From contig CAYPYS010000001.1 in NCBI GenBank assembly GCA_964415355.1, forward strand, positions 283,819 to 347,818: DNA of 64,000 bases, written 5' to 3'. The notes beneath the pieces are model-generated. The model was not told the origin of the DNA, did not search any database, and saw only the letters and a list, made by a program, of their open reading frames with translations. This document shows, in pieces, positions 1-64,000 of this stretch. Every line of letters begins with the position of its first letter. Positions within the stretch are counted from its first letter, which is position 1. This stretch comes from an uncultured Planctomycetia bacterium. Its GTDB lineage: Bacteria; Omnitrophota; Gorgyraeia; Gorgyraeales; Gorgyraeaceae. The position numbers and the translations under genes were made by a program.

Positions 1-3000
1 ACTCAAAATTTTTAAACCATCTATTTCAAAATCTCCTCTAAATATCGAGGTGTATACCTCTTCAAGCCAATGGAAAAGCTCTGTCTTGCCGCTCAAGAAA
101 CTAAAAAGTCTTATATTTAAATCGAGCCTGTCACGCTTTGGCTGCCAGTCCTTTTCTTTTTCTCCAAAAATAGGGCCTGCGGCAGTTAAATAAAAATCCT
201 TTACGAACTCCACCATCACCTTTTCTTCAAAGCTGAGTGCATCATACTGCTTTTTAAGGTAACGTGTTATCATATTACCGAATTGAAAGTTAAACTGATT
301 ACTTCTGTCTCCCCATAAATCCTCTGCTGACTGTTCTTCCCCCCATAAAATAAAAGTACCCCATGCATTTTCATCAGCACCAAGAGCCAGGTCTTCAGTT
401 AAAACATCATGCTGTTTTAAATCTTGTCCTGAATCCTGAGGTATACGGTATATCGTGCGGGCTATTAAAGAGATTGCGCTCTTTAGAGGCACGCTTAAGA
501 AAAACCCAACTGTGCGCCAGCCAATCAAGGCAGAGTAAATAGAGACAAGGACTGTGGTAATTCTTACAAGATAAGGGCTTACCTGCGTGTTTGCTACTAT
601 CTTGTTCAAGGCCCTGGCCCATTTAAATCCCTGTCCTTTAACAAGAGAACCCACAGCAACTAATATGCTGCCTCCTGTAGAGGTCTCGTCATCCAGCACA
701 AAGAGCCAGGCATTTTTTAGATTGCCTATCCTTAAAGGCTTGTTCTTGCTGATAAAAATCTCATCTTTCTCGATATAAACATCCTTATCAGTTGTCCTGA
801 CCTTGGGCAAATATCCTGTATATATAGGAATGCTTTCAGGAGATATGATATATCTCCTGGAGATCATGATTCTTAGAATATTAGCTGCTTCCTTGACATA
901 GTGAAGCGCCCCTTTATCAGGCGCGAGCAGGACCAAAGGATTTTCTCTCAGCGTATCTATGATCTTATTGCTGCGCCTGAGCATTTCCGGCATATCCATG
1001 ACCTCGCCCTTCTTAGGCAATGATGCCCCGATCTCTTCAGCAAACACCTCAAAGAATAAATATTCAGCCAGCTGCACAAAACCATTGATATTTATCAGGC
1101 GTATATTTTTATATCTACTCAAGGACACAAGGCCGCGCTTTTTGCCCTGGCCTAGCCAAACCCAACCGCTCTCACGGCCATAATGCACATTGTTCGCAAA
1201 ATGAAGGTCTGTCAGCCAATCTAAAAGTAAAAGCATTGCCCCGGCTGAGATCACATCACCTTTTTTATCAGCCCTGTCCTTGCGCGCAAGGCCTTCATAG
1301 GTATCTATAAGCGAAATATGATTTACCCCAGCCCTGCGTAATTTGACAAGCGCCAGCAGCAGATAAATGACATTCTGGCTGTTCTCCGTAGAATGTATAA
1401 TAGCCACATCATCGCCCTTTTGTATATCCAAAGGAAGCGCAATATCATAATGAGCATTGCCATGATCGATGATCTGTATCATGCCATCCCTTGCCTTGAG
1501 ATTTTCAGCCACTCTCTGGGATTCAGCCTCAAACCTTGGTTGAATGCACAGTATCTTCTCTAGCGGGCCTCTAGGCATACTCTTGCTTCGACTTCTAGAA
1601 ATAGAAACTTCTTCTGTCCATTCTGTGCCATCGCTGCACATAACTTCATCGCCAGCATATCTCATCAACTCCAACAATATCTCATCGTCTTCCAGGATTT
1701 TTCCTGCCTCATCTCTTCGCGGCCTCCAGCTTAATAGTTTCAAAACAGCCTTCTTGGCTTTATATAATTTTGAGCCATCTGCGAGCAGGAGCACGGCAAG
1801 CACATTGTCATTCGAAGTCAACCCATCTTCAGAAACCAAACTTCGCTCAAGCTCTGCTTCAGACCCTCTAAGCTCTCGATAATTACTGATATTAATATTA
1901 GGCTCCCTATCCGCAAACTGCCCATACGTATACCTTAAGTTTACACTCTTACGTTGTTGAAGTGTAAACTCAAGGAGAAAAACGACGATTGCAACTGCTA
2001 GGACCATTACGATTACACACATAACAACTAGCATAACAATCCTGCCATCAGACCAGCCAATCATTTCGTTAAAGGCTAAATATAATGCTGCGTTATTGAA
2101 AAAGCCTGTATTACGGCTAGTTGGAGATACTTGTATATCGTATTTATGACTTCTGCCTTTTATGTCGCTAAGAGAACTAGCGCTACCGCAATGATCTAAA
2201 TGTTGTTTAACAGGAGCACTTATAGTAGCACTCTTTAACATAGCTAATACAATGACTACGGCTCTTTCTTCAGGAAAAACTCTTGCATAGACTCTTCTGC
2301 TACCTCTTTGTATTTCATAGAGACCGTGCTGCCTGCCATATTTCTTTGGAAATTTACTGTTAGAAGGATTAGCCAGTAAAGTCTCTAGCTTTCTTTGATA
2401 TTGCCTGGCTGAATAGTCACACTTATCAGTAACAGAATATACTTTAAATGTTAGCTTTTGCCTTTTTGAGCCTTGCTGTCGTAGAGATGAATTAATATAT
2501 TTCTCTCTAACTGGCCTATTTCCTCTGTTTCGTTTATTAGACTCTGGAGGCGGATCCTTGATTACATCTGATACCACTACATAAGGTTCTGGTTCACTCC
2601 TGCCTGTTTCGCCTATTGCTTCTTCCTCTTTTTTTCGAATATCAATCAAAAACTTTATAGGACGCCATATTGGCCAGGTTAATATCTTTAAGGCTTTAAA
2701 TATAAAAACAAATATTTCCCCTAAAACCTCAAAGACCCTCTGCATAAAATCCCATACTGGCAAGATAATATTTCCATATATCCATTTAATCCCTGAAAAA
2801 ACAGGAAGTATAAAATTGAAAAACAGACTAACAATGGCCAATGCACCAATAGCCATAACCATCATAATATTCTGTCCTGGTGTAAGGTTTTCTATTCTTG
2901 CTTCTATAAAGCCGATAACTAATACGACAAGTAAAGCTGTTACTATTGGAATTCCTATAACATCCCCTAATAGCGTATCAAGAAATCTATGCCTTACTTT

Positions 3001-6000
3001 ATTCCTTTCAACACACATCTTAATACCCTGCACTATCATCATTGAAACTAAGATAATAAGAGGCACGGCCCATATCAAATTATCAGCATTAAGGGGTGGG
3101 GCGTGGCGCCAGATGGCGTAGAGCAGGGCAGTTAATCCTACGATGAAATGCGAAGAAACCCTCCCAGAAGGATTTCTTATTTTGTCTATTATTCTTTCTG
3201 TATTTACCCTAGTACAACCCAAGCCCACGAGTACATCGTCGCTTAGATCGGGCAAGGCTATCTTAGCCTCTTTAAGCATGGCACGGCCTTCCTCGATAGC
3301 CCAGCCTCTAACATCAAGCGGCTCCATCAGATTCCATGCTATAGCAATATATACTTCTCCTGCGTCAGCCAAATCCAATCTACTTCTTGCAACGTCTAAC
3401 AGGAAACCTTCTTCTATATGAGGCTCTAGTTTGGTATTTAGTATTTTTTCTAGTATCGCCTTTCCTTTTTTAGCAGCCTCTTCTAATCTATTCTTGGTCT
3501 CAGCCTCTCTGAAAGTCATTAAAACCAATTTTGTCCTGGGCAATTTCGCTTCAGACCTAATCTCTTCAATTCGCTGCGGAGGCATAACCACCCCTGTCTC
3601 ACATTCTTCTATTATCTGACCTGTCTTCAGGCTATCTGTTAAAGAAGCATGCCTGGTATCTAAATAATAAAATTTTTGCCTTCGGCTGTCATACCTTATG
3701 CTTTCGTGGACCCTGGCATTTAAAAGATCTCGCGTCAACCAGTTTTCGCCATACATAGCAGCTACATCAGCAATAACAGCGCCTTGCGGCACGCGTATAA
3801 CCCTAAAATATCGCTTGCCTCTGTATTCCTTGCTTACAAAAATATAGACCAAATCCTCTATGCCTCCTAAAACTGCGTCAAAGTCCTTAACTGGATCGCC
3901 TGTAAACTCAATATCATCAGGAGTATATTTAAGATTCTTTTCAGTATTTTTCACTGTCCTCTCAACCTTATAAACCCAATGCGCAAGCGGCCCATGATAT
4001 CTATAGTTAAAATACTGTCTCTTGGAAGGAAATATCTGAAATTCAACGGCGATCTCTCTGGATCCAAATTCAACCCACTTACCTGCGTTGAAAGCCCTGT
4101 ATCCTACATCTGCCTCTCTTTTTTCTTCAGTTTGGCCCTTAATATCCTTTTGCCATATATCATAAATAGCCTCTATTGCTCTCCTGTAATCTTCTCCGTT
4201 TTTTGTAACAATCATTATGCCGCCCAAGTCTTTTAATGAAGCTACATCAGGATATTTTTCCTTTTCTATGACCTTTCTATAAGTCCGATACACGCCCTTG
4301 CATCTTCCTAAAACTTCGACTGATTTTATTACTGATTTTTTCAATATAGACTCGACATGCTTGCGCAACTTCTCGACCTCTTCCTTAGCCTCCTCATAAG
4401 TCATGCCAAGAATTTCTTCTATCTCTGCTATTGTCCGCCTATAAGCATCGGCATCATAAAGCTTAAACCATTCATCCTCTAGCGCCTCTGAAACTATATC
4501 AAGGCCGCGGCGTTCCGCAAGCGGAATATACAACTCATGCAATTCAGCCTTTAAATATTCTATTTCTTCTCTAGCATTAGCGTGCCTTATAGTACTTAAT
4601 CTATCCGCAAACGTAATAAGAAGGACCTCAAAGCGCCCTGCTAATTTCAATATCATATTCATCTGGTTATAGGCGTCCCATACGCTAGAATCAAGCAGCT
4701 TATAAGGAAGGGCTCGTATCATAGCATGCCTCTTAGTCATGAGGATCAATTCCTTGATCTGAGCAGGATCCAGAATATTTTCTTCTTTCAAAGAAGATCT
4801 AAGAACAGCGCTATCCAACGGGTGCAATAGACATGTGGCTATAAATAGATCAGGAACTTTTTCTGACCCAAAAGCATATTTATAAAATCTGATAAAGTTA
4901 CGGGTTACTTCTAATACGTGTTCTAAATAAAGCTCTCCGGAAGGATGGATCAGGTCTTTATATTTTTCCTCTGCGAAATCATAGATCTTTTCTATCAACG
5001 AGGTGTCTATAGAGTTTGACAGGATAAAATCTAAAACAGCTTTTTCTCTGCCATTAAACTTTTCTGATTTTTTGACTTCAGGAAAATCTTCCAATAAACT
5101 TGCAAAAACGCCTACTAGATAATCTTCTTTGTTCAAATCAAGATATCGCGCATACACAGATAAATATTGCATTGCTACTGAATGTTCTTCGCCAAATCTA
5201 GGGCTGGGGTTACAGATGCTTTGAACGAGCAGCTGCGGATCAAAATAGCCAGCTCTCATCATATATTGCCTGACAGACAACATTCTTAGAGCATCTCTTA
5301 ATCTACTGAAAGCTACTTTTAAATCATCATTATCTTTTATAGCATCGGCTATGTCTTTTTCCAGCTCAGCATTGAAAATATGCTCTAATAATGCACTATG
5401 CTCTGTTGCTTCTTCTGGGTTATATCTTGCCAGACTGGATATTTCCGGGAATTCTGCCAAACTAAAAAAGACCCTCTCTCTACCTAGAAGCACGGCCACT
5501 GTAAGACATGCTTCTAATGTTTCTGTCCTGACTTTAACCAAGGCCCTGAACTCTTTCAGTCTATCAAGGCGCCTATCTATCGCTACATCAACCATAGTCT
5601 CTGTAACACTCTTTATATCCAAGATATCAGGTGTTATACCTAAAACAGAAAATGCCCTTTCTAGCTCTTCCGTCATAGCCTTTTTTATATATGGCTTTCT
5701 AACGGACAAAGGACTGGATAAGATACGACTAATTTCTCCCCTATGACTTCTTAGGTTATCTTTTCCAGAGACAAATCCATAGTTTATAAAAAGAGTCTCG
5801 AGGCTTTTGGGATCCATAAGTCCCTCTATCAAGCCCATGACATAGTGTAAAGGCCTCTTGTCTCCGAATAATCCAACCTTATCAAATATCTCAACCCTTG
5901 CCTTAGCGTCTATTTGAGAAAGGACAGATGCGATCAAGACAGAAACCCAGCGCTCTCTAAGCTCTGCAACCCGCGGATTCGTTAAAGGAATGTCTTTGTA

Positions 6001-9000
6001 TCCAAAACCAAAAAGTCTCATAATTCTTTTGCATCTTATCTCAATGTTATTGACGAACTTTTTGTCCTTATTCCTTATATCCTGTAAATAGAGAAAAGCC
6101 TTTTCGAATAACAACACCTCTGTCAGGCTTTCGGGAATATTAAATACGTATGCATCTTTTTCAGAACTTAATATATATTCCTCATATTCATTTACTATCT
6201 TCTCTTGAATCTGGAATCGTTCTTCTGTCCTTACAGATTTACTGTTTCCAAAGCCTGCAAGCTTCCTGATCCCCTTTCTTACTTCATGCCTTACCTCTTT
6301 AATCAAATCTCCATATGCCGAAGCCAGTTCTCTATCATTGAATCTTAAGGCATATGCCATAGCAAAATACCCTATCCATAAAAGCGTCACTGCCCCGTCT
6401 AGATTCTCAAGCTGGCTCTCTACGCTCAAAACATCCAACGTCCTAAGACTATGGAGCCTATCAACTAGTTTTAGCATTACGGCTTTGTTTTCATCCTTAT
6501 GCCTTGCCGCTCTATATAATGAACTGTAGAATAAATGCTTTTTTTGATTACCATGTTCGTCTCTTTCGATTGTAAGCAACTCAACATACCTAGCCACCCT
6601 GTCTCCAAAGTTATGCTTTATCTCTCTGACTGTAGCTAAACCATCTTCGGGCAGATCATGTAACAGAGCAGCCATTATAATATCGATATCCAGTTGACCA
6701 AGCACCATAACTATCTCTGCTACAGCCGCAGGATGGCCTATCTCAGGAGTCCCTCTTTTCCTAAAACTGACCTTTTTTACCTGCGCAAGCCTTATAGCTA
6801 AAAAATCATATGCCTTTTTTATTAGCCGCATGTCTCTTTTGTCCACTTTTTCATCAAGAAGTTCTTCGATTCTCTTAAAATAACCCAGTTCAACGCTCTT
6901 GGTTCTAATATAACGTGTTAACAAGATCCCAGAAAAGAACATAATCAAAATCATCATCGAAAATACAACAAGATTTACTATCAGGTTTGGGTCATTTAAA
7001 AATCTATATAAAAGTAACGCGAGGGCCTCCATGGCGATTATTTTTAGCGTCAATAACTGAAACCCTGTAACGATAAGACTTGTAAAACTCGGAATAAATA
7101 GAGGATCCCATCCCCTGGTCTCGATAGTATTCTTTACTAATAAATATATGACCCTCTTTTGTATAAAACTGTCGTATAAATATCTCTTCTCGAGGAACGG
7201 CTTCATTTTTTCCGGGCAAATACGATAAAAGATATGTTCCGAACAATAATCTTCAAACCTAGCTATATTGATATGCTCTTCGTATTTTTCTGTAGCAATG
7301 GCTCGCGGTTTATGTAGCAAGAAACCCAAGATAACCAAAATAACTGGATCAAATACTGTAAGGATAAAGAATAATGCCATTATTAGATATGCAGACATAG
7401 TAACCGGGACCCGTTCTGCGATCAGCGATGTGATCACAAGCAGAAACATTAAAAATAAAGCGACAAAAATAAGATCTCTTTCTCGAAGTCCAGTTAAAAA
7501 TGACCACTGCATTGTTTCTTCTTTTTCACGAACAGGATATACATTCCTGATAAAGCTGGCAGCTATGGCAGTGAAAAATAAAATTAATAATAATAAACCC
7601 AGACCATATGAAAAAATAAAAGAAAACTTGCCAAAGCGAAGAACAAAAATAGACCCTACAAGGATTATAAGTAAGGGCGCTGAAATCCAATATATTATCC
7701 TGCCTATCCTGAGCATAGGGTAACTATTCGCTATAACATGCAAAATAATAGATAGGGCAAAGAACATTGGAATAAATAAGTCTACAGAAGGTTGCAATAA
7801 CCCCAATAATGCCGTGCTGACAATAGTAATAAATAGTCTTCCGTCAGAAAATGCAAAGGTGAGTTTTTCTTTGAAAGAATTTTCTTTTGAGCGAGGAATA
7901 TGCAAGAGGTGCCAGAAAATACGCGCACATAAATATGCTAGAATTACTGGCGGGCCATGCGCAAAGGGTATACCAAATGCTCGGCTTAGCAAGAGAGCCA
8001 GGCCGCAGACAAATATTGCTTCTTCAACAAGGGCTGGCGCAAGCGCCTGGCCTATAAAGCCATGCCCGATCTTATCATATAACCACTGCAGCCATGGAAA
8101 ACGCCCACCAAGAACCTCCAGATCTCCTTGTAGAGATTCTAATTCTTCTTCATATTCAATAAGGTCATCGACCAGGTCCAATGATATAGCAGCCAACAGG
8201 TCGCTAAAAGCCTGCGTTTTGTCATGTTTGTTATCTAAAAATGAAGACAAGGATGCCCCTCCGCTAGATAGCTCAGCCTTAGCTTCATCAGCTCTTGTTA
8301 TACGCGCCTTGGCATTACTAAGATCACCAAAAAGACGTCTTTTTGCTGGGTCTGAATCAGAAGCTTCTACTAAGTCCGCTAATTCATTGCGAGCTCTTTT
8401 TTTATCTTGAACAGCCTCTTTTCTGAACTGGCTTATTTCTTTCGATAATTTTCCCCTGGTGCTTCTTACTTTTCTTCTAGCCTTTGCTATTTCTTTCTGC
8501 TTCTTCCTTATTTGTTTTTGAAGTTCATCATCCTCAGTCATCCCGAATTCAGCAAACATACTCATCTGCCCAGGAGAAACCCTGGTTTTTCCGCGTCCCC
8601 TCCACGCCATCGCAAACATGAAAGCTGTAAAAATCACCATCACAAAATCAGCTCTAAGTATACTTTCAACATTGTTGAAAGTATACTTAAGCAGGGCGAA
8701 GATGATAAAAGGTAGTGCTAGTGAATATAGAGTGATATACTTTTTCTGCACAGCCTCCGATACTCCCTGGCTCTTATAAGTTTCCCAATTAGATGCAGAC
8801 CAGATCTCAATAACCCCACCCACCCCTGCTATAACGACTTTGCTTAATCTCTTTATGCCGGCCTCTTTGCATAATCTACTACCTAATGGTAAACATCCAT
8901 TACTATTAAACCCTTTCCCTCCTTTATCAGGAATAACTCTGATATAAGACAAGCTCTTATCTTCTCCTATCAACAGCTTAACTTTTCCATCTGAAGATCG

Positions 9001-57000: not shown

Positions 57001-60000
57001 TATATTAGATAAAGCATATTCTATATCTCCTGCTGATAAAGGCAGCGAAGTCTCATCATGATAATGATATCTGACAGGAGATAACAACCCTTGACCAGAA
57101 GTATCGCCTGATACTGACATATAATCAGAAAAGCCATTTCGAAATGCTACTGTAACCCTATTTCTGCGTTTTACAGAAACTACCCTGCCTGTTGGTGTCA
57201 TACCAATGATACCGCCTGTTTCAAAGAAAAGCTCATCTCGTAAATTGCGTTCCAGGCGCTCGCGAGTTTCAAGATCTTCTATATCCAGCACATTAAGCAT
57301 AAAATCTATAACATCAGGATCGCCTTCTATAGCTACCCTAATATCTGAAAGCGTCACTTTCTCCCCTGACTCTAGGGCTTCGGATAAGGGCTTACCATTC
57401 ACAGTCAGCCTTAAAGGCCTGGCAGATTTTAAGCTAGCCCTACTTCTATATGTTGTTTGTTGAATCTTGGATTCCCCCGGGGATATGCATATTAAATTAT
57501 TTAAAGGCCTATCTGTCCATGTAAAATCAAATACATATGAAGCATTGCGTACATCTATCTGAGCTTCTTTTGCCCTAAGAGCTTCTTCTCTTAGAACAGG
57601 CGCGGCCGCTTCAATCATCTCAACATATCCAGCAACCTCTGCGGGAATAGCCTTATCTGTTTCTACTGGTGCTGGCATACTCGCAACTGGGGCAGTGACT
57701 GGCCTACCAAGACTTTCCCTTAAGCGAACACATATTCTTCTCAATAATTCATCGGCATTCTGCTCCTTCCAATCTTTACCTAGATAGTACTCGCGTGCTT
57801 TTAACATCTTCTCAGAAGGCCATCTATCAGATTCACGAGAAATAATGCGTAATGTGTTCTCCGCTAATTCTTCTATGCTCCTAAATACATATCCAATCTG
57901 CAATTCCCTCTTTTTTTGTGGGCCGGTCTGTCGCGTTAAAATCAGATCATAGACTCCTGGCCCTGACGGCGTTACAGAAACCCCTGACACCTGCTCAAGT
58001 AACCTTGATAACTCATGTAGAAATTTATCTATGAGGGCTGTCTGTTCTTTCGTATCTTTAGCCTCTGGAGCCAGTAAAACCATATCAATATCTCGTCTGG
58101 AACCTGACTTTAGATACCGGGTGCCTCCTACTATAATCGCTTCAATAGGCCTGCCCAATTTCTTACTAAGCGAGCGACTTGTTTCAGCGACAAAACTCTC
58201 TAATAGCGATAGGTTAATCTCATCCTTCTCTACGTTCCAGAATTCATTTGATTTATCAGTATAGGCCGATGTTTCTTCAGGTGGCGTATCGGCTTTCTTT
58301 ATCTCAGACAGCGAAGCTCCTTCAGCTGGAGCTTCAGCAGCTTCTGGCTCTGGCTCAGTTTGCTCTGTGTCTTCAGCTAATTTAGCTGGTGCTTCTGATG
58401 GAGCAACGATCCCCTGGTCTGGTGTCTCTCCTAAGATCGCGTCTATATGTTCTTGATTTTTTTCTACTTGAGCAGCGTAAAATTCTGCCAGCTTTATCCA
58501 TTCGGCCAAATATTCCTCAGAAATCCCCACTCTCTCGGCATACTCGAGCTGCTGGGTTAAAGTCAGGCTATCCGTATAACCTAACCTTCTTAACTCGCCT
58601 ATATCAGACTCGGAAAGATGAATACAATCCCTAATTAATATATATACCTGGAATATCTCTAACAGTTCATGAATAAGCCCAAATTTCTGGTCTGCCTCAC
58701 TGTTAAGCTCAGGATGAGCTGGATTTAAAACTACCTCTGCGCTGACCACCTCTCTGGCTTCAAGATCATACGATACAGTCGCGCTCGCAAGCTTCGGCAT
58801 CCCGTCAGCAGCATCTCCTGTTTCTTCGGCAAGTTCATGTTTCTTATAGACCAAATCAGGGTCTTCTCTAAACGTTACCCCGCAGGTCTGCTGTATTATG
58901 CTAAAAAGAACGTCCAAATCGATCAGCTCTTTAAAAAGCTGTTGCACATCTTTTACGCTCGTCGTAGGCATAGTTTTTTCTTCGCCCGGCTGCCCTGCAG
59001 ACAAGGTCACTCTTTCTATCCTATCCGTTTCGTCCATCTTATCTTTATAGAGTGCAAATAAGCGCTCTTGTTCTGAAATTATAGAAGCTATCTTTTCCAG
59101 CTGAGATGGTTCAAGATTTATTGTTAACTCAGAATTAAAAACGAGCGCCTCTATATCATCCAACAAACGATCTACTGTCCTAAGAGTACTCAAGACATCT
59201 CTCAACATATTTATATTATGAAATAAAAAATGCACTGCTTTAATAGGTCCCAGAAAATCCCACGTATCCGAATCTTCGGGAGGAACAGTTAAGCTATCGA
59301 TATCCCTCTGGATAAGTGATAGGGCAGAATCTATGCGCTCATATAGCTCTTTTAATTGAGGCTGTTCCGGCATCCCGACATCCCCATCTATTATATTTAA
59401 CCTACCTATTTCTTTTTTTAACTTAGATCTTTCTTTAACACTTGTGGATCTTAATGTAGAAAGTAAGTCCTCTTGCTCGTATTCTGTATACAGCGCCTCA
59501 GCTGGTGATTTAGAATCCTCTTCTTTTTCTCCTGTAAGAACTGGTATGTCTGCTTCTGGGATTGATTTACCAAGCCTACTATATCTCTCTGCCCAAATTT
59601 CGAATAATCTACGTTTGACAACTCTAACGGCTTCAAATGTTTCCTTTAATTGCCCCCACTCAAAAAGTCCTCCTGTTGCTAGAACCCCATCCATTACAGC
59701 TTCTGCATCGTCTAACTCTAAATCTATCTCCTCTAATGCCTGCCTTGAGCTTTTTACAGCCTTTTCAGAGTCATCTCTTTTTAATCTATTGATTTCTTTG
59801 TCTATCCTTCTCCTGATATCTTCTAAGGCTTTTGCTATTCTAAGTGAATCTGAAAGCGATGCCAGAACTTTTCTTATTGCAGGGATTGCTGCCTCAAAAG
59901 TCTCTGCATATCTGGTTGCTGCGTCAAGATCATTAATAAGTTCAGTAGATACTTCACCGCCTATTTGTCTGAGCATATCAACCCTGCCAGCCCAGGCTTT

Positions 60001-63000
60001 TGTAAATTCTTCTCCTACTCTTTCTTCATCGGAAGCCAGTTCCTGCAACTCATCCAAGAGTGCCTTTTCAATCATATCAGGTAGACCTAATAAATCTTCT
60101 GTTCCTGATAAACCACAAATAACCTCATCCACTGTCCGCATTGCAGGATTATCGCGGTAAAACTCCTCTATTATCTCCTGCATAGTGGGTTCCAATACTT
60201 CAGTCTCAAGGTCCCTAAAAGCAAAACTCAAATATCCTACATCTAATAAATCCATCAATTCTTTCATTTCATCTTCGGAAAATTTTTCGAGAATAGACCT
60301 GACAATCTCACTGGTTGCTGCTTTTGGTTGCTGATTTATTTCTGTCTGCAATGTCAAGTAAGATGGGCTTTCTTCGATTTGCTGTGGGATCTTTCCCATA
60401 TGGACCAATAGCAATATCAATCTTATCCTGTCAAGCGCTGTGCATAATATAATTCTGGAATTATCATCGGATCCTGTCAGATGTTCCTCGGCAAGATCCA
60501 ATAAAGCACTGACCATTCTTCGTGCTAAAAGAGGAAGATTTTCAAGAAGCCCCCTTGTCTCAATAATATAAGATTTCATATAGCGCTCACGCAATTCAAC
60601 TAAACTCTGCGCCATCCTTTTATTCCGCCTAGATTCTGGCTGATAACCTGTGCCTTTATTACGAAATTTAAAATCAACCCTTAAATCAGCGATTTCTGCA
60701 TCACTATAGCCAAGTGTTTTCTGCAGGTAACTAAAATATCTATCTTGGAATCTTGAAAATATATCAGGGAAATTATCACGGGCAATGGTTATAAGCCCTA
60801 AAAACTGCGCATTTTTACGCAATGTGGAAACCCTTACATAGTGAAAACCTTCCAGCTCTGGTAATACAGGCACATGCCCCATCACGCCGTCAAAGAAACT
60901 AGTTTGCGATTGTCCAGCGCCGCCGCCGCTTCCTTCAGGATCCACTGAATATCCTGTGCCGGTATTGGAATTTCCTAAAACATACCTATGGATAGAGGTC
61001 TTTTCTGTCAATGGCAGGGCTGCCATAAAACTCCAGGTCTTCATCCCTCTAAAGAAATGAGCCAGCATAATATTAAGAGCCTCTATTTCAAAATCTCCTG
61101 TCTGAGTAAGGATGTAAAAGTATGGGACAAAAGGAACTGCCGGTCTTTGTATTGGATAATGTATAACGCCTAGCTGCTCAAGGGCTTCCATGTAAATCCT
61201 CATTGCAAGACGATCACCTGGCGAGAACCTGTGTTCAGCAGATTTCTTACTGCTAGTATATCCCGACTTATTAATTCCTGTGTTTCTTATGCCACGTTTT
61301 GATGGCACCTTAAGCAAAAGATTAGTAATAGCTAATCTATCTTTTGTGCCTATATTATCAGCAGACTCTGCTGTCTCAAGCCCCTGGTTGCAATCTGTCC
61401 TTGGATCATAATATCCCTTAATAAAAGTAAAAAGTTTAGCCAGTCTGGACAACCTGCCTAGTTCAAAAGGAGAACTAAGATCTACCCCTTTAAAAAATCC
61501 TATTATTCTGACAGCCATCAGTGCTGATCTGGCTGCGATGGATAAATCTACACGCTTGCCTGTTGCACGATTGCCTTCTAGAGAAAAGCCTCTTAATGTC
61601 TCTTCAGGCCATGAGATAGCGCGTAATATTTTTAATGTCTCTTTGGATATCGGCCTTCCGCTAGATTTTGTCTTATGCGCTATAGCATTATCTCCACCCA
61701 TAAGAAGTAAGCTTAACTCTACAAGATCTTTGAATACAGTATTGTCACCGCCTATATTTCGTTCTTCTAATCTCACTAAAAGAGGGACCAGGGACTCTCC
61801 TATTTCTGCAAAAATATTTGCAAGATGGACGCATCTATCTGAACTGATAGTACTGCGGTCACCCAACAAGGCAAGCCCAAATGCGGTGATCATATCAGGG
61901 TCCTCGATTAATTTTTCCAAAATATTTTTAATAGTCTTGTCTTTTGTGTACTCTTTATCGTGATAACAGATATGAATAATAAACCCAAGAAAATCGCTCA
62001 CTATTTTTGATAGCGGGTGATTTCTTCCTGTTATCTTTTGCCATAACTCTAATATATCAGCGGGTTCTATTCTTCGGCCTCGCATAAACAGTGACTTCAT
62101 TGCTTTAAGTAGTAATCTATGATTAGAGTCTAAACTTAAAGCTACTTCTGCTGCAGCTTCTACAATATGCGCTTCTTGATCTTCGAGTGCCCACTTAGAT
62201 AATGCTGCGTATAGCTCTTCTATAATGTGTGAAACCACAATTACGCCAGAATCCCTGAGAAGAGGCCTGGATCCTATAATATTTTCGGCGTTTTTCCTGA
62301 CAGCTGGTTCAAGTCTGTCCAGATACCCTCTAAGTAATTTAATCGAGCTAAAGATATCAGCTGGGTTACCAAGCCTATTAATAAAATCAAGCGCTGTCTT
62401 ACGGCTTAGCGGCCTGGGAAAATATTTACTGAGAGTTTTCTCAACTGTCTCCTCTAAGAGAGTATCATGTCCTGCCTTTGCTATAGCCTGCCCAATAGTC
62501 TCTTCGCTGGCAGAATCTTCAGCTAAGGCTTCTTCTATAATACCAATGACTTCTCCCTTAATAGCCTGCTCTCCTTTTTCAGCAACTAAAAGAGGTCTCC
62601 TGCTGGCAATGCCTCTTGCCGCATCTTCGATGCGCTGGACAAACCCGGCAATCTCTGCTTCTATATCACTAAATACAGCCAATTTGCCATCTATATCTTT
62701 TTCCTGTGAAAGTCGAGCTTGAATACGTCGTTTCACTTCTTTATTGCTAAGTTTCAGGCGTTTTGCATCATTGCGCGCGTTCGTAATTGTTGCCTTGATC
62801 GCGTCAGGAATAAAGGCCTGCTTGAGTCCTGACAAGGCTTTACCAAGCGACCCTGCGCCAGCCGCTAACCTGTCTGAAATAGCAGTTACGATATTTCCTA
62901 ATTCAAAGACTCCCCCCAGACTCGAGAACTTATGAAAATGAAATCCCGGGAATCTTTCGTATAATTCTTCTGCGGCTTGCCATAACTCTTCCTGCGCTTT

Positions 63001-64000
63001 AAACATCGTGCTTATTTCAGCAAGGTGTCGCGCAAGAGTACTATTCCCACTATAATCAGAAACCCCCTTTACGGTTTGCGTCAAACTCGGCTCTCCTGTA
63101 TCATTTATGACCTGCCAGAACTCTCTTTTGTGTATAAGTTTCAAGAGGCTTTCACGATCAATTTCGCCATGCTTAACAAGGACAGGATAAATCTTTAAAA
63201 TGCTTTGCAAGGCTTTATTGACCGATGCTTCTAAACCGCTAAGTGACCCTGTAACTATCGACGTAAACTCTATAAAAACTTCTCCTCTCCTTTGCTCTGG
63301 AGGAAATTGACCAATAAGGCGAACTAGCAATACTTTTACTGCCTCCTTATTAAGATCAAACATCGGATACATCTCTACAAGCTCTCCCTGAAAAGCAGAA
63401 ACAGCCCTGGTAAAAAGTTCTTGTTCGATTGCATCTATCCCGCCCTCTACATCATCTCGTATAATGCCGCTAATATCACCTATAGAAGAAAGATTCCCGT
63501 ATTTTGTCCTTAAAACAGTCCTTCGATCATTAAAAAAGATGCCATGCAATCTCTCAGCTTGTATCCAGCAAGCTTCTCTTGCGAGGATATCCTGCATTAT
63601 AGGCCTGAGAACGCGTTGCACATATTCGAGGGAAGGCCAGTCACCTGCTTGTAATTTACGATTTATAATATTAATCGCCTTTTCTCTATCGAGCTCGCCA
63701 TGGATGCATAAGGCCTTGCCTATACTGAGCATTTCCACGACTCCTTTTTCGATTACCGCAGCTACTCTATCTAATTCTCCTGTAACGATATCTCTTGCCT
63801 CTCCAAGAGTCTTGTCATTAGATAGTTCTGCACGAAGACGAGCTTCAATTGCGTGAATTCTTAGCGATGTAATAGTCTTTCTGTAATCATCGCAAATCCC
63901 ACCAGGAAGAGAAGGAATGAGATAACGTTTGTTCAAGCCGTCTCTAACTAAACCAACTGCAGCCTTAAGGGCCTTCTGAGTTTTCTTGTTATATGCAGGA
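1..64000 (-). CDS. Internal fragment of a giant multidomain protein gene. The window holds about 21,333 codons with no start or stop, and the gene continues past both window edges.
   Basis: Seen directly: minus-strand frame with codons at + positions 3k+1..3k+3. Hand-checked stop-free for every codon 46030-64000 and for spot checks at 1-120, 9001-9660, 12721-12900, 26461-26640, 33421-33540, 41581-41700. Six unrelated enzyme motifs fall in this identical frame: HD at 6598, HRDITPENI at 27388, YRDVKPVNI at 28741, GILTGGGP at 36151, GSSGAGKST at 38701, KQSL motif at 45943. + strand ORFs are low-complexity antisense shadows. The remaining ~40 kb was translated by eye without a codon-by-codon stop check. 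Confidence 0.85.
560..1490 (-). other. Ribose-phosphate pyrophosphokinase (PRPP synthetase, Prs)-like domain embedded in the giant ORF
   Basis: Minus-strand translation gives DVAIIHSTENSQNVIYLLLALVKLRRAGVNHISLIDTYEGLARKDRADKKGDVISAGAMLLLLDWLTDLHF (Prs N-terminal domain pattern) followed by the type I PRTase motif LFVLDDETSTGGSIL (+ coords ~650-700). Confidence 0.6.
2284..2420 (-). other. HigB/RelE/ParE-like 'addiction module killer' motif inside the giant ORF
   Basis: Translation PKKYGRQHGLYEIQRGSRRVYARVFPEERAVVIVLAM matches the characteristic G..LYELR....R..Y.......VVILL pattern of RelE/ParE/HigB-fold toxins. Confidence 0.35.
3700..3850 (-). other. TGS domain (C-terminal to the RelA/SpoT synthetase)
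   Basis: Translation RYFRVIRVPQGAVIADVAAMYGENWLTRDLLNARVHE resembles the TGS beta-grasp segment that follows the synthetase in Rel/SpoT proteins. Confidence 0.45.
3960..4330 (-). other. RelA/SpoT-type (p)ppGpp synthetase domain (NT_RelA_SpoT)
   Basis: Translation VLGRCKGVYRTYRKVIEKEKYPDVASLKDLGGIMIVTKNGEDYRRAIEAIYDIWQ...GYRAFNAGKWVEFGSREIAVEFQIFPSKRQYFNYRYHGPLAHWVYK carries the G-R-x-K, YRA/H and HWxYK signatures of RelA/SpoT synthetases. Confidence 0.7.
4430..4900 (-). other. Degenerate RelA/SpoT HD (hydrolase-like) domain with HP in place of HD, immediately N-terminal to the synthetase
   Basis: Translation IATCLLHPLDSAV (LLHDV to LLHPL), LITFADRLSTIRHA (ADRLHNMRTL motif) and ELYIPLAERRGLDIVSEALEDEWFKLY (APLAHRLG motif). 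Loss of the Asp suggests an inactive, RelA-like pseudo-hydrolase. Confidence 0.55.
6450..6800 (-). other. Intact RelA/SpoT-type HD phosphohydrolase domain
   Basis: Verified codon by codon: KRGTPEIGHPAAVAEIVMVLGQLDIDIIMAALLHDLPEDGLATVREIKHNFGDR (H...HD...D), followed by MLKLVDRLHSLRTL. Confidence 0.7.
6900..9450 (-). other. Polytopic membrane region (multiple predicted TM helices)
   Basis: Long runs of hydrophobic residues in the minus-strand translation (e.g. GLGLLLLILFFTAIAASF, LIFVALFLMFLLVITSLIA, AGIVLIIIGLCVGLFFFLLLW), flanked by Lys/Arg clusters. Confidence 0.45.
9451..9506. repeat. Perfect 56-bp palindrome (28 + 28 nt, no spacer) lying in-frame inside the giant ORF
   Basis: Seen directly: 9451-9478 ccctctccccatactgtaggtcaggttt is the exact reverse complement of 9479-9506 aaacctgacctacagtatggggagaggg. 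The ORF reads through it as LTLTLSPYCRSGLNLTYSMGRGLS with no stop. Confidence 0.9.
9900..12100 (-). other. About 700-aa coiled-coil region (SMC/myosin-like heptad-rich segment)
   Basis: Translation is dominated by E/K/L/R/Q heptad-like sequence (e.g. EIEILSIIREVETLLEKAQLETENMNQETEETLGKIQNW..., ...LRLQREGELEARELELENLSNELTRLIHKVDERLSRIEKSL...). Confidence 0.5.
13950..14720 (-). other. Class I SAM-dependent methyltransferase-like domain (1 of 6)
   Basis: Motif I VDIVEVGAGYDMIF (+ ~14560-14583), acidic motif II and ILKPGGTLVV motif downstream. Confidence 0.55.
16100..16750 (-). other. HEAT / PBS-lyase-like helical repeats
   Basis: Repeated D..VR..A..ALG pattern: LLGHDDKYIRSMALRYISFFGEPTDLNRVLPFLETSDCRIQCSAIRAIGYSNNPDGIHSLVKVLESS. 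Confidence 0.4.
17500..17950 (-). other. Class I SAM-dependent methyltransferase-like domain (2 of 6)
   Basis: KIVEFGPGVVSLPGIVAHSMGAQYLGIEIDPESV...ILEHGGQLVIMVS; motif I at + 17873-17893. Confidence 0.55.
18300..18830 (-). other. Class I methyltransferase-like domain (3 of 6)
   Basis: DKSLHIGYGASLLPIFDAIRGLEVHAVDPDKDVID... motif I-like. Confidence 0.4.
19540..21000 (-). repeat. Tandem internal duplication of a ~400-aa module (protein-level, ~1.2 kb period)
   Basis: Two units beginning ISEDLRKAIEQGEDVKLALCIGVGSGQELLNLKELKK... (~20850) and ISEDLRRKIEEGQYIKCALCIGAGQGKELLNIRDIKR... (~19635). Both contain ...DE[VI]YMIGP[WM]PP... and ...F[TV]VLTE...DFVEVL... blocks. Confidence 0.5.
22100..22500 (-). 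other. Class I SAM methyltransferase-like domain (4 of 6)
   Basis: GKTIMFVGPDTANIPITVAERFPDSQVIVVNP...GSVDLIISSG (motifs I, II, III). Confidence 0.5.
24352..24419. repeat. 12-bp-stem inverted repeat (cgtcattgcgag / ctcgcaatgacg) enclosing a 44-nt loop, in-frame in the ORF. It carries a 27-nt element that also occurs, in the opposite orientation, at 45957-45983.
   Basis: Seen directly. 24354-24380 cattgcgagcgaagcgaagcaatctc(a) is the exact reverse complement of 45957-45983 gagattgcttcgcttcgctcgcaatga. Confidence 0.8.
24870..25290 (-). other. GHKL / HATPase_c histidine-kinase-like ATPase domain
   Basis: N-box ELLKNAVTNAHFDP, D-box DSNKGIPKK and G2-box GAGLGLGKVRNVVDMHDGSI in order. Confidence 0.6.
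27150..27900 (-). other. Hanks-type Ser/Thr protein kinase catalytic domain (1)
   Basis: Verified: HRDITPENI catalytic loop (27388-27414), DFG-like GGFG, and GTIGYAAPEQ activation-segment motif; N-lobe with VALEV / Lys region upstream. Confidence 0.8.
28330..29100 (-). other. Hanks-type Ser/Thr protein kinase catalytic domain (2), tandem with domain 1
   Basis: GSGNDSRVY glycine loop, VALKV, HRRDLIYRDVKPVNIII (28741-28788, verified frame), DFG, GYAPPEQ. Confidence 0.7.
29230..29780 (-). other. Class I SAM methyltransferase-like domain (5 of 6)
   Basis: ITVMDWGCGDGTALLNIREAL (motif I, + 29680-29706) ... DLIFSTES ... EGKLFVDV. Confidence 0.55.
30000..30400 (-). other. GNAT-family N-acetyltransferase-like domain
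   Basis: Motif A: LAVASGSRNQGIGTILMAYAL (+ 30140-30166) with flanking beta-strand-like segments. Confidence 0.5.
33600..34750 (-). repeat. Tandem duplication (~600 bp period) of a ~130-aa module carrying two helix-turn-helix-like motifs each
   Basis: AAVDLSESEVRKAAGGIYW...NIRNLANRLGVGKDDVQSAI...ITQKDVASVLGVNSSTLWVKTKK... and AAVDLSESEVREAATGAYW...SRNLANRLGVGTNDVMRAI...STTDVAKALEVGITNVRRRKK.... At the DNA level, 29 identical nt (cgcacttcactctcactaagatcaacagc) occur at ~34083 and ~34667. Confidence 0.55.
35150..36240 (-). other. Phosphofructokinase-family (PFK, PF00365-like) domain preceded by an in-frame Met
   Basis: MYTYGIGVALFAGTVSPTKRIGILTGGGPASGHNEVIYSAV...DGLITCGGDDTNGASYRL...LIIGLPKTMDNDIALPHGASTYGYDS... 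The GGxG, GGDGS-like and PKTIDND motifs of ATP/PPi-PFKs are in order. Frame verified at 36151. Confidence 0.7.
36380..36480 (-). repeat. KQSL motif copy 1 (VIANTAGVKQSLAYAFMFLGLFGSKGWRNNKSPRGSPR followed by a TM helix)
   Basis: Seen in translation. DNA agagattgcttcacacctgcggt...tcgcaatgacg shares 23 identical nt with copy 3. Confidence 0.7.
37330..37720 (-). other. NUDIX hydrolase domain
   Basis: NUDIX box GHSISGESLEVTVPREFIEELRNE (G-x5-E-x7-REuxEExGu) at + 37515-37585, verified by direct translation. Confidence 0.65.
38230..38760 (-). other. Guanylate kinase (GMP kinase)-like domain
   Basis: Walker A TVIAVAGSSGAGKSTL (+ 38701-38748, verified), then TTRPYRGPGDDKKCVTRAEFEAKKDRGEF...YGDDYAS, matching the GK 'TTRxPRxGE-x-G-x-Y-F-V' and nucleotide-binding segments. 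Confidence 0.7.
39880..40480 (-). other. Class I SAM methyltransferase-like domain (6 of 6)
   Basis: VVVADIGAGKNLLGREMV (motif I, + 40405-40435) ... VIGCDMG ... VHVVIQHTVMHHVEE ... ILKQGGLLMLFED. Confidence 0.55.
40870..40935 (-). repeat. KQSL motif copy 2 (SIATATEVKQSLIGPVLMLLGLFGSQDSRNSDSPRSPP)
   Basis: Seen in translation; DNA shares agagattgctt with the other copies. Confidence 0.6.
41000..44650 (-). other. Large polytopic membrane domain (more than 20 predicted TM helices) containing an intramembrane HExxH motif (LLHEMIHVWVARLFG)
   Basis: Very hydrophobic translation throughout. HEMIH sits at + 42433-42453 within a predicted helix. The family is unassigned (M48/M50-like zinc protease or other). 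Confidence 0.4.
43150..43215 (-). repeat. KQSL motif copy 3 (VIASTAGVKQSLGFLFMGSIFAKSEDRDSWYS)
   Basis: DNA caagagattgcttcacacctgcggtgctcgcaatgac is near-identical to copy 1. Confidence 0.7.
44780..44835 (-). repeat. KQSL motif copy 4 (DVVASSSTALGINFAKQSLIGSALIVATLFGSKGWRNNKSPRSPPW)
   Basis: Seen in translation; the GSKGWRNNKSPR block is identical to copy 1. Confidence 0.7.
44900..45800 (-). other. CPBP-family (CAAX protease / Abi-like) intramembrane glutamic protease domain
   Basis: Three CPBP motifs in the canonical order within TM helices: PLFEEFLYIG (EExxxR-like, + 45421-45470), FSFAHSADS (FxxxH), MAHSIINLIG (HxxxN). Confidence 0.55.
45940..45990 (-). repeat. KQSL motif copy 5 (IIASEAKQSLAGLPFMFLGLVGSQGSRDSNSTRGPP). 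It contains the 27-nt element that is inverted at 24354.
   Basis: Verified frame at 45943; DNA gagattgcttcgcttcgctcgcaatga. Confidence 0.8.
46100..48900 (-). other. YdbT/DUF304-like module: TM hairpins alternating with bacterial PH (bPH_2)-like domains
   Basis: EIPFDKIQSEEALLEGFWANVFRYGTVKIEVAGDDSVIFEKMFNPVMVVKALRNKRIE and EIVFGPISAAKAKEVVTIVEKAKEIEE resemble bPH_2 cores, flanked by paired TM helices. Confidence 0.4.
52300..52560 (-). other. Soluble HExxH zincin-like metallopeptidase motif (ImmA/IrrE-M78-like or SprT-like)
   Basis: Verified translation ACRHAVLALIEAQLMHEISHIVSGDHRDEAGAMVIEANFF (HEISH at + ~52455-52470). Confidence 0.4.
57700..58200 (-). other. Pol-beta-superfamily nucleotidyltransferase (minimal NTase) motif
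   Basis: Verified translation PIEAIIVGGTRYLKSGSRRDIDMVLLAPEA. The GG-x9-DxD signature is typical of NTase-fold enzymes (GlnE/GlnD/MNT-like). Confidence 0.45.

Follow-up and report, generated by a model that had tools for sequence, protein, structure and literature searches.

A 64-kb bacterial DNA window as the probable interior of one giant multi-enzyme membrane-protein gene of Omnitrophota type

Can 64 kb of bacterial DNA lie inside a single gene and, if so, what kind of protein would such a gene encode? This question is raised by a stretch of 64,000 nucleotides (nt) of contig CAYPYS010000001.1 (GenBank assembly GCA_964415355.1, positions 283,819 to 347,818), which we analyzed over its whole length and call the window. 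A previous sequence-only reading had proposed that the entire window is one uninterrupted minus-strand frame, cut from the middle of a gene at least 64 kb long. Our analysis leads to the same view: the window is very probably an internal 63,999-nt piece of one real minus-strand protein-coding gene from an Omnitrophota-type bacterium.

Six-frame translation of the window showed that one minus-strand frame (offset 1) has no stop in 63,999 nt, corresponding to 21,333 codons, while the remaining five frames contain 530, 1,234, 1,543, 1,905, and 1,932 stops. About 1,481 stops were expected from base composition, and the probability of finding none is approximately 1e-667. The interval 120-46030, which the previous reader had left unchecked, likewise contains no in-frame stop. 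TAA, TAG, and TGA are each missing from the giant frame; the stop set is wholly unused, and codon reassignment is therefore irrelevant. The amino acid (aa) numbers used below follow the rule that aa i occupies window positions 64000-3i to 64002-3i.

1..63999, minus strand: single open reading frame (ORF) of 21,333 codons, open at both window ends (stop counts, even codon-position GC)

The composition of the frame is that of coding DNA. The GC content by codon position was similar in each 2,000-codon block (GC1 0.47-0.55, GC2 0.34-0.39, GC3 0.32-0.38), with GC1 higher than GC2 and GC2 about equal to GC3, and the GC skew of the plus strand was negative evenly across the window. Because of this codon-position pattern and the even skew, the giant frame is coding throughout and a chimera is unlikely; no compositional break hinting at one was seen. 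The first 100 codons at the window edge have the same coding-type codon-position GC. In-frame ATGs number 406; the earliest is codon 90 and is preceded by AAGGAG. The 87 codons ahead of this ATG are stop-free and of coding composition, and for this reason the gene start lies almost certainly upstream of position 64,000. As the giant frame has no stop, the 3′ end certainly lies beyond position 1.

These results bear on several of the previous claims. The uninterrupted frame was borne out, as was its reading as an inner part of a gene that extends over at least 64 kb, the frame being open and coding-like at both edges. The statement that neither a start nor a stop occurs in the window was right for the stop and wrong for the start, given the 406 in-frame ATGs, though the true start is almost certainly upstream. 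The remark that the supplied ORF track shows only antisense shadow ORFs and omits the giant frame was accurate: all 20 listed ORFs of at least 130 aa are on the plus strand, and 19 share a single shadow frame that is poor in stops. The giant frame was unlisted because the listing tool skips ORFs that run off both ends. The longest antisense ORF (48857-50254, 465 aa) gave no family match and sits in the shadow frame, and we rejected it as a gene; an Ala-rich low-complexity stretch of GCN codons at 49391-49480 underlies it.

In-frame combinations of a Shine-Dalgarno sequence with ATG or GTG occur 9 times, about half the 19.6 +/- 4.2 of codon-shuffled controls. This scarcity suggests that internal initiation sites are avoided, and internal translation starts were rejected, the combinations being depleted rather than enriched. 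The window contains no detectable RNA genes, tRNAs, or Rfam elements, and its promoter-like sites are no more frequent than in shuffled sequence. Terminator-like sites slightly exceed the shuffled level (19 versus 12.7 +/- 3.3); one of these is a palindrome at 8655-8689 that is described below.

We searched the translated frame against Pfam (gathering cutoffs), PDB sequences, and NCBIfam, and located transmembrane (TM) segments by hydropathy only. At least 13 distinct Pfam domain types scored above gathering, all in one frame, between window positions 622 and 48,612; the six catalytic motifs that had previously been noted in a shared frame are thus part of a longer series. The product is non-repetitive: self-BLAST gave only few, diverged duplications, Tandem Repeats Finder (TRF) found nothing substantial, and none of the approximately 13 domain types is present in more than 3-4 copies, the number reached by S-adenosylmethionine (SAM) methyltransferases. 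From the bPH_2 region onward, reading from N- to C-terminus (window 63,999 to 1), soluble enzyme cassettes alternate with TM clusters. The layout is as follows.

49696..63999, minus strand: 'dark' region, aa 1-4768, almost no TM segments, all-alpha at low confidence (negative in Pfam, PDB, and NCBIfam; AlphaFold2)
47770..49695, minus strand: TM hairpins and bacterial PH domain (bPH_2, aa 5130-5200, window 48400-48612) within aa 4769-5410 (bPH_2 E 1.2e-7, 32.3 bits versus cutoff 22; hydropathy)
40930..46092, minus strand: dense polytopic membrane region, aa 5970-7690, about 35 hydrophobic helices (hydropathy)
40144..40431, minus strand: Methyltransf_11 SAM-dependent methyltransferase, aa 7857-7952 (E 9.5e-8, 33 bits versus cutoff 21.2)
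38344..38745, minus strand: P-loop kinase, guanylate-kinase/PhnN-like, aa 8419-8552, P-loop GSSGAGKS (Guanylate_kin E 6.7e-10; PDB 1gky E 1.4e-8)
37276..37674, minus strand: NUDIX domain, aa 8776-8908, intact Nudix box G-x5-E-x7-RE-x2-EE (NUDIX E 9e-12)
35041..36207, minus strand: phosphofructokinase (PFK) domain, aa 9265-9653, motifs GGDDT and PKTMDND (PFK E 1.5e-44, 152.9 bits)
12265..33066, minus strand: TM-poor stretch of about 6,900 aa, aa 10312-17245, with regulatory and modifying enzymes (hydropathy)
30100..30276, minus strand: GNAT acetyltransferase, aa 11242-11300 (Acetyltransf_1 E 1.4e-8)
28330..29166, minus strand: PknB-like Ser/Thr kinase (kinase 1), aa 11612-11890, motifs VALK, YRDVKPVN, and DFG (Pkinase E 4.5e-32; PDB PknB 4e-23)
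27058..27867, minus strand: paralogous kinase 2, aa 12045-12314 (Pkinase E 3e-19; 32% identity to kinase 1)
24841..25278, minus strand: GHKL ATPase (HATPase_c), aa 12908-13053 (E 2.5e-14)
21025-21363, minus strand: second, weak HATPase_c, aa 14213-14325 (E 1.7e-3)
14278..17937, minus strand: block of aa 15355-16574 with methyltransferase (MTS/Methyltransf_25), HEAT repeats (aa 15804-15965), and Methyltransf_12 (Methyltransf_25 E 1.4e-7; HEAT_2 E 3.5e-17; Methyltransf_12 33.4 bits)
6907..9453, minus strand: C-terminal TM cluster, aa 18183-19031, about 15 helices, with AbrB/MraZ-like fold at aa 18372-18412 (window 8764-8886) (hydropathy; MraZ E 1.4e-5, 25.4 bits versus cutoff 23)
6406..6894, minus strand: Rel/SpoT/MESH1-type HD hydrolase, aa 19036-19198 (HD_4 E 1.1e-11; PDB 6s2v 3.8e-11; HD dyad at aa 19114)
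3304..5004, minus strand: long-form Rel/SpoT homologue (RSH), aa 19666-20232, with synthetase domain at aa 19898-20013 and further C-terminal Rel regions (PDB 6yxa residues 25-548, E 1e-12; RelA_SpoT 27.8 bits versus cutoff 27)
2239..2418, minus strand: very weak ParE/RelE-toxin-like stretch, aa 20528-20587 (ParE_toxin E 0.15)
622..1518, minus strand: ribose-phosphate pyrophosphokinase (Prs)-like domain, aa 20828-21126 (Pribosyltran_N E 1.6e-8; Pribosyltran E 0.017; NCBIfam Prs 54-64 bits, under cutoffs)

The first 4,768 aa gave no Pfam, PDB, or NCBIfam match and no homolog, and a single-sequence AlphaFold2 model of this region consists of helices throughout at a pLDDT of 40.9, usable for secondary structure only. 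Further along the chain, the closest PDB entry to the embedded PFK is 9dqm (2e-23), a pyrophosphate-dependent PFK (PPi-PFK), and it carries the motifs GGDDT and PKTMDND, which we take to be pyrophosphate-type signatures. The PhnN model is the top NCBIfam match of the Gmk/PhnN-like domain (52.6 bits, far under cutoff), and the isopentenyl diphosphate (IPP) isomerase model is the nearest to the NUDIX domain, which is 43% identical to the related protein P0040. Kinase 1 is apparently active, as predicted from its intact catalytic motifs, while kinase 2, with its catalytic Lys replaced by Glu and the Asp of DFG by Gly, is probably a pseudokinase; the details of this motif alignment are approximate.

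A tandem duplication (aa 14305-14986, 38% identity) adjoins the second HATPase_c, and the HEAT repeats, which match alphaRep entries in PDB, form a single short array only. The HD_4 value of 4.7e-23 that can be obtained for the HD hydrolase is a sum over two HD_4 stretches. In the RSH region the hydrolase-like domain has no HD dyad, the synthetase motifs look diverged when read against the consensus, and identity is only 23-27%, in every case to ordinary Rel proteins. NCBIfam scores were all far under the curated cutoffs, for example 148-156 versus cutoffs of 253-550 for the PFK and 129 versus 499 for TIGR00691 in the RSH region. Judged by these scores, the embedded modules are best described as divergent superfamily members rather than equivalogs. 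In most of them the catalytic motifs are preserved.

Two further observations concern the domain content. Remnants resembling toxin-antitoxin genes are in frame (the ParE/RelE-like stretch, the AbrB/MraZ-like fold, and a weak MazE match), which is compatible with a giant frame taking in small adjacent genes. Motifs resembling CPBP/CAAX proteases were seen by eye in two TM clusters and were dropped, Pfam being unsupportive.

We next consider where such a gene comes from. An exhaustive HMMER search with the Gmk-NUDIX-PFK stretch returned as its 37 best matches PFK domains within proteins of 273-7,819 aa, most of them longer than 800 aa, with 30-56% identity and 140-390 bits; ordinary stand-alone PFKs reached at most about 140 bits. 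The named matches were Candidatus Omnitrophota 'partial' proteins spanning entire contigs, and one from Auribacterota. With an alignment of this PFK clade, which has 53 invariant columns, we then scanned genomes and metagenomes. Among 185,579 species genomes (GTDB representatives) we found 25 loci with 44-55% identity, almost all from Omnitrophota metagenome-assembled genomes (MAGs), several of them labelled 'Planctomycetales' or 'Planctomycetia', one Deltaproteobacteria, and one unclassified. Beyond these 25 loci the identity drops to at most 36% (Acidobacteriota, Armatimonadota), and the genes there are ordinary PFK genes of 1.1 kb. JGI metagenome contigs showed the same pattern and nothing nearer than 54%. 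The clade of the embedded PFK (44-56% identity) occurs nearly exclusively within very long ORFs of Candidatus Omnitrophota MAGs, many of which have no stop over 21 kb. The Omnitrophota-like source that had been surmised from the sequence alone therefore agrees with the 25 best genome loci of the embedded PFK, and the Omnitrophota affiliation of the gene, read from these relatives, is indirect.

In ten of these loci (L001, L002, L006-L009, L011, L013, L015, L022) no stop interrupts the PFK frame from one end of the locus to the other (up to 21 kb), the contigs being up to 225 kb long with a GC content of 0.37-0.50. L019-L025 have ORFs of 4-10 kb, and outgroups have genes of 1.0-1.3 kb. The domain vocabulary recurs among the relatives in shuffled order: in L001 a NUDIX domain immediately precedes PFK, and L004, L017, L084, and L085 have beside PFK a Prs-like domain that is 30-38% identical to that of the window. 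The compared PFK-clade loci showed no similarity outside the embedded domains, and a closer collinear relative was rejected, the PFK-clade scans giving nothing above approximately 55% identity. Protein-pattern scans found no relative of aa 1-5000 among GTDB R232 representatives and none of aa 16334-21333 in JGI metagenomes, and the source itself is in neither collection. Word-indexed searches also returned nothing, either for aa 1-1500, with a tool that loses divergent matches with long queries, or for the 1,300-aa Gmk-NUDIX-PFK stretch, despite the existence of 56%-identical relatives. Members of the family appear to enlarge through in-frame accretion and reshuffling of once-independent genes, a model suggested by the graded series from 1.1-kb PFK genes through 4-10-kb fusions to frames above 21 kb, together with the remnants resembling toxin-antitoxin genes.

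The relatives have features of their own. In a set of proteins of 1,200-2,500 aa (P0006, P0010, P0012, P0015, P0017, P0019-P0021, P0024, P0025) PFK is fused to other glycolytic-type enzymes. By eye, members of this set begin with a segment resembling a signal peptide, after which comes a (D)HLRP-type motif, and a conserved C-terminal end of the form …PLVKVS.E…AYEET.SKI is common to many; a signal-peptide-like start ahead of glycolytic enzymes is puzzling. L006 contains a near-identical duplication within its giant frame, at 8553-8760 and 13086-13295, about 4.5 kb apart (…QSNHYPLPIP.EAKEA.RALAVKHG.GEDTFTQV…). Some relatives repeat short motifs at domain-sized spacing: SSSP occurs 14 times in P0002 (0.125 expected), DNGG 4 times in P0014, and EKSYPA 6 times in P0016 (P about 1e-20), in the last case always outside Pfam domains and once 12 aa ahead of PFK. 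DGG, found 10 times in P0003, is a further lineage-specific inter-module motif. From their sequence and spacing, these motifs are candidates only, as linkers or cleavage sites.

The window protein has one recurrent element of this kind. No short linker motif recurs in it at k >= 5, and at k = 4 only KQSL does, with 6 observed against 0.27 expected. The tetrapeptide belongs to a membrane-hairpin module of about 70 aa, present in six copies between aa 5,980 and 9,947, with the core [IV]xAS..A..[AV]KQSL, a short hydrophobic stretch, GSxGxRNxxSPRxPP, and then a TM helix. The copies were defined by self-BLAST, alignment, and profile search (i-E 5e-48 to 1e-3), and they flank the methyltransferase-Gmk-NUDIX cassette and the PFK cassette. 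The same membrane region contains a weak protease-like domain.

45778..46062, minus strand: KQSL module copy 1
44653-44916 and 43096-43215, minus strand: KQSL module copies 2-3
40771-41040, 36268-36561, and 34159-34236, minus strand: KQSL module copies 4-6
42169..42477, minus strand: weak HExxH (HEMIH) zincin/site-2-protease-like domain, aa 7175-7277, membrane-embedded (DUF3267 E 5e-5, 24 bits versus cutoff 27.1; Peptidase_M50 E 0.017)

The module, which was not found in the relatives, may be a junction or processing unit, and the HEMIH stretch is, from its motif and position, a possible candidate for an embedded intramembrane metalloprotease. Across the whole chain, hydropathy gave 38-76 non-overlapping hydrophobic 19-mers, depending on the threshold, and these are clustered; the overall number of TM helices is estimated at about 40-90.

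At the nucleotide level, the 64 kb contain two strong palindromes only, both near the 3′ part of the window frame and with the AbrB/MraZ-like fold between them.

9450..9507, no strand assigned: perfect 58-nt palindrome (29+29, no spacer), aa 18165-18183, directly ahead of the first helix of the C-terminal TM cluster
8655..8689, no strand assigned: perfect 17+1+17 palindrome, aa 18437-18449, at the turn between two TM helices, about 760 nt downstream (on the mRNA) of the 58-nt palindrome

As mRNA, the 58-nt palindrome folds into a 27-bp hairpin of -58.9 kcal/mol (z = -11.7) with an in-frame AUG in its 3′ arm. Codon-shuffled controls reached arms of 8-10 nt at most and a lowest energy of -33.9 kcal/mol, and the second most stable local RNA structure, the run of Ala codons at window 49391-49480, has -42 kcal/mol per 90 nt (z = -3.2). 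The palindrome at 8655-8689 was flagged by the terminator scan as a stem followed by AGCTGATTTT. The 58-nt palindrome has no second copy in the window and none in viral contigs, and long palindromes are absent from the ORFs of about 40 related loci. That it is a mobile or repetitive element was rejected, and a 15-mer shared with L006 lies there in another frame, in a duplicated segment, and is compatible with chance. Possible explanations of this palindrome are a signal for RNA processing or pausing, a site of protein binding, a product of templated mutation, and a local sequencing artefact.

How might a protein of this kind work? We propose that the gene would be transcribed and translated as one unit and that the chain would be stitched co-translationally into the cell membrane, with its cofactor-dependent cassettes on the cytoplasmic face forming a membrane-tethered array. 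Such an array would join the chemistry of sugar phosphates, phosphoribosyl pyrophosphate (PRPP), and guanine-nucleotide alarmones, through the PFK, Prs-like, Gmk/PhnN-like, NUDIX, HD, and Rel modules. It would also bear protein-modifying and signalling modules (the kinase and pseudokinase, GNAT, methyltransferases, and GHKL ATPases), and the HEAT repeats and the 4,800-aa all-alpha region would be its helical scaffolds. By analogy with a cultured relative, the array would presumably lie at the host-contact zone of an episymbiont. We place the cassettes in the cytoplasm because the recognized enzymes need PPi or ATP, GTP, SAM, or acetyl-CoA, and because typical extracellular modules are absent. 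The scaffold on the cytoplasmic face is a tentative proposal, to which we give a little less than even chances, and membrane sidedness is its weakest step. Gene identity and membrane array taken together are the overall explanation that we consider probable.

Several points weigh against this interpretation. With regard to the membrane side, the topology derived from hydropathy and the positive-inside rule flips with the TM threshold, shorter relatives have a signal-peptide-like N-terminus directly ahead of PFK, and many domains of published giant proteins are predicted to be extracytoplasmic, in predictions that are themselves flagged as unreliable (West-Roberts et al., 2023; Nielsen & Lui, 2026). 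With regard to function, the pseudokinase, the hydrolase domain lacking the HD dyad, and the diverged Rel synthetase look degenerate, and their activities are not assured from sequence. About 85% of the protein lacks any homolog, and the assignment to Omnitrophota derives solely from relatives of the embedded domains. Finally, the window covers the gene interior only, with both ends and the flanking genes outside it, and the locus is known from assembled sequence alone.

The explanations that compete with the membrane array differ mainly in what would happen to the chain after or during its synthesis. A self-processing polyprotein, cut at the KQSL hairpins by the embedded HExxH domain or another protease and yielding its parts in fixed stoichiometry as viral polyproteins do, is a serious contender that we still regard as unlikely. 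The six KQSL modules bracket the methyltransferase-Gmk-NUDIX and PFK cassettes at domain-sized spacing, with the zincin/site-2-protease-like HEMIH domain in the same membrane region; relatives repeat SSSP, EKSYPA, and DNGG at domain spacing, in P0016 outside Pfam domains; and autocatalytic cleavage has been proposed for giant proteins (West-Roberts et al., 2023; bioRxiv 10.1101/2023.11.21.568195). However, the protease match is under its Pfam cutoff, neither C39 nor S8 occurs in the window, KQSL is confined to aa 5980-9950 and missing from the following 11,000 aa, and recurrent motifs might just as well serve as flexible linkers, carry glycosylation, or be left over from duplication. Less likely again is an exported string of effectors whose cassettes would act on or in a prey or host cell, rewiring the state of its nucleotides, alarmones, and phosphorylation. 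Chemistries such as those of the kinase, GNAT, NUDIX, and Rel/HD modules are typical of effectors or toxins, a host cell would supply ATP, SAM, and acetyl-CoA, and the signal-peptide-like N-termini of the shorter relatives point the same way, as does the published topology that puts many giant-protein domains outside, with 13 of 14 giants flanked by genes for type II secretion systems (T2SS) or pili. Against export, the 21,333 aa contain no glycoside hydrolase, lectin or carbohydrate-binding module (CBM), Ig, FN3, or cadherin domain, dockerin, or secretion signal; the recognized enzymes all depend on intracellular cofactors, and moving a TM-free stretch of 6,900 aa across a membrane would be mechanistically demanding. 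The polyprotein and the effector string are not mutually exclusive.

We consider it very unlikely that the frame conceals an operon or a processed transcript, with internal starts or with mRNA cleavage, for example at the 27-bp hairpin as an RNase III-type site. That hairpin (9450-9507, z = -11.7) does precede the C-terminal TM/Rel/Prs part and carries an in-frame AUG in its 3′ arm, and West-Roberts et al. (2023) leave transcript cleavage undecided. A hidden operon is nevertheless disfavored because in-frame Shine-Dalgarno and start combinations are depleted; moreover, there is no Rfam element, several domains (e.g., PFK) have no Met near their N-terminus, and the two strong palindromes in 64 kb have no counterpart in about 40 related loci. 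A more elaborate scheme, to which we assign a low probability, combines both levels of processing: a membrane-stitched polyprotein would contain the cell's working, possibly sole, copies of PPi-PFK, Prs, and Rel, and would be cut at KQSL by the HExxH protease, its mRNA being cut at the 27-bp hairpin ahead of the alarmone/PRPP block, with SSSP, EKSYPA, and D(N)GG as the equivalents in relatives. An artefact is scarcely credible, whether from a chimeric join or an assembly error in the contig or from non-coding or decayed DNA left open by chance or by an altered code. It could draw on the fact that the window is known from assembled sequence alone and on the perfect palindromes, which could hint at local assembly trouble; yet the palindrome arms are just 29 and 17 nt long and in-frame coding continues on both sides. 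The probability of no stop (about 1e-667), the absence of all three stop codons, the even codon-position GC and GC skew, and the presence in a single frame of at least 13 domain types whose catalytic motifs are conserved all argue against it, and it is implausible that unrelated chimeric pieces would share one frame over 64 kb.

Compared with what has been published, the gene adds one sequence-unique example to a class of hundreds to thousands, already known from ultrasmall Omnitrophota bacteria, and leaves existing knowledge unchanged. Its value lies in details: about 4,800 aa without a detectable relative, and a full complement of enzymes for guanine nucleotides, alarmones, and PRPP (Gmk/PhnN-like, NUDIX, HD, Rel, Prs-like) with a kinase/pseudokinase pair, which neither key paper discusses. 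The graded PFK series, with an ordinary gene at one end, enzyme fusions in between, and giant frames at the other end, illustrates how such genes may grow. The inter-module motifs, the KQSL module, and the RNA hairpin bear on the question, posed by West-Roberts et al., of whether and where transcript or protein is cut, and these leads give concrete predictions testable with existing proteomic and transcriptomic data. If true, processing at KQSL and the hairpin would supply the cleavage points that the field says it lacks.

Two studies provide the framework for the comparison. West-Roberts et al. (2023; section 12 of which covers giant proteins outside Omnitrophota) described 46 Omnitrophota genes above 90 kb, encoding up to 85,804 aa, and used the terms 'giant' for at least 30,000 aa and 'large' for at least 10,000 aa. 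Nielsen & Lui (2026; bioRxiv 10.64898/2026.06.07.730766) reported 3,650 proteins of at least 10,000 aa, 348 of them of at least 30,000 aa and the longest of 147,155 aa; a signal peptide or TM helices occur in about 94% of the long proteins, and singletons make up 80% of the clusters. With these numbers, the earlier statement that genes of this size are extremely rare no longer holds. Linkers and inter-module or cleavage motifs are not mentioned in either paper, and palindromes are not mentioned in Nielsen & Lui (2026).

The giant proteins of the Archaeovorin type, whose type sequence is from Velamenicoccus archaeovorus LiM, have many TM helices, a domain-poor N-terminal part, and HEAT, methyltransferase, NUDIX, GNAT, HATPase_c, and glycolytic-enzyme domains. 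Most members have a divergent SecA_DEAD or preprotein-binding domain and an N-terminal C39 or S8 peptidase, described near the termini, and T2SS or pilus genes nearby (13 of 14 giants); autocatalytic cleavage is proposed, its points are stated to be unknown, and transcript cleavage is left open (West-Roberts et al., 2023). The window resembles them in being filled by one very long ORF, of which at least 21,333 aa are visible; this reaches 'large', and the visible part stays below the 30,000-aa line for 'giant'. It resembles them also in architecture (numerous TM helices, a long domain-poor N-terminal-side part, an embedded central-carbon enzyme), in its highly divergent HEAT, methyltransferase, NUDIX, GNAT, and HATPase_c domains, all above Pfam cutoffs, and in its taxonomic affiliation, the nearest relatives of its PFK being Omnitrophota. 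Unlike them, it has no glycosyltransferase or glycoside hydrolase (E <= 0.5), its only peptidase match is the sub-threshold zincin-like one, and SecA_DEAD, C39/S8, and TPR were not detected in the 21,333 aa, which are gene interior with the termini outside; the glycosyltransferases, hydrolases, SecA_DEAD, and C39/S8 may lie outside the window or be absent. Conversely, the text of West-Roberts et al. (2023) is silent on PFK, Gmk-like, Ser/Thr kinase, Rel/SpoT, and Prs-like modules.

Other large proteins are more distant. Megasynthases of the non-ribosomal peptide synthetase (NRPS) and polyketide synthase (PKS) types share only the size class; the window has no condensation, adenylation, carrier, ketosynthase (KS), or acyltransferase (AT) domains by Pfam and PDB. 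Giant repeat adhesins and dockerin-type proteins differ in being repetitive, whereas the window is non-repetitive and has no Ig, cadherin, haemagglutinin, TSP3, dockerin, NHL, WD, or lectin repeats by Pfam. The Omnitrophota glycolytic fusions of 1,200-4,000 aa (P0006, P0010/P0151 'phosphoglycerate kinase', P0012, P0015, P0016, P0019-P0025) are related more closely, belonging to the same PFK clade (41-52% identity) and being in-frame fusions. With a tenth to a twentieth of the length, however, they have only one hydrophobic segment, at the N-terminus, where the window protein has dozens of TM helices, and they combine PFK mainly with aldolase, GAPDH, PGK, TIM, and GPI, unlike the window. They resemble stages midway along the same trend towards fusion.

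A further match in overall design is class 1 of Nielsen & Lui (2026), the multi-enzyme clusters (class Gorgyraeia), in which Module 1 comprises PF08241, PF02518, PF00583, and HD regulators. As in that class, many Pfam families tile the chain and none dominates, there is about one TM helix for every 250-500 aa, and the sequence is a singleton. The domain content fits Module 1 (PF08241, PF02518, PF00583, HD) plus NUDIX, kinase, and HEAT, whereas the sugar-polymer enzymes of Module 2 (starch synthase, GT1, PGM) are absent from the window. Judged by domain content and layout, the gene is thus a sequence-unique new example of the published giant multi-enzyme membrane proteins, of 'Archaeovorin' type and of class 1, the 'multi-enzyme metabolic cluster'.

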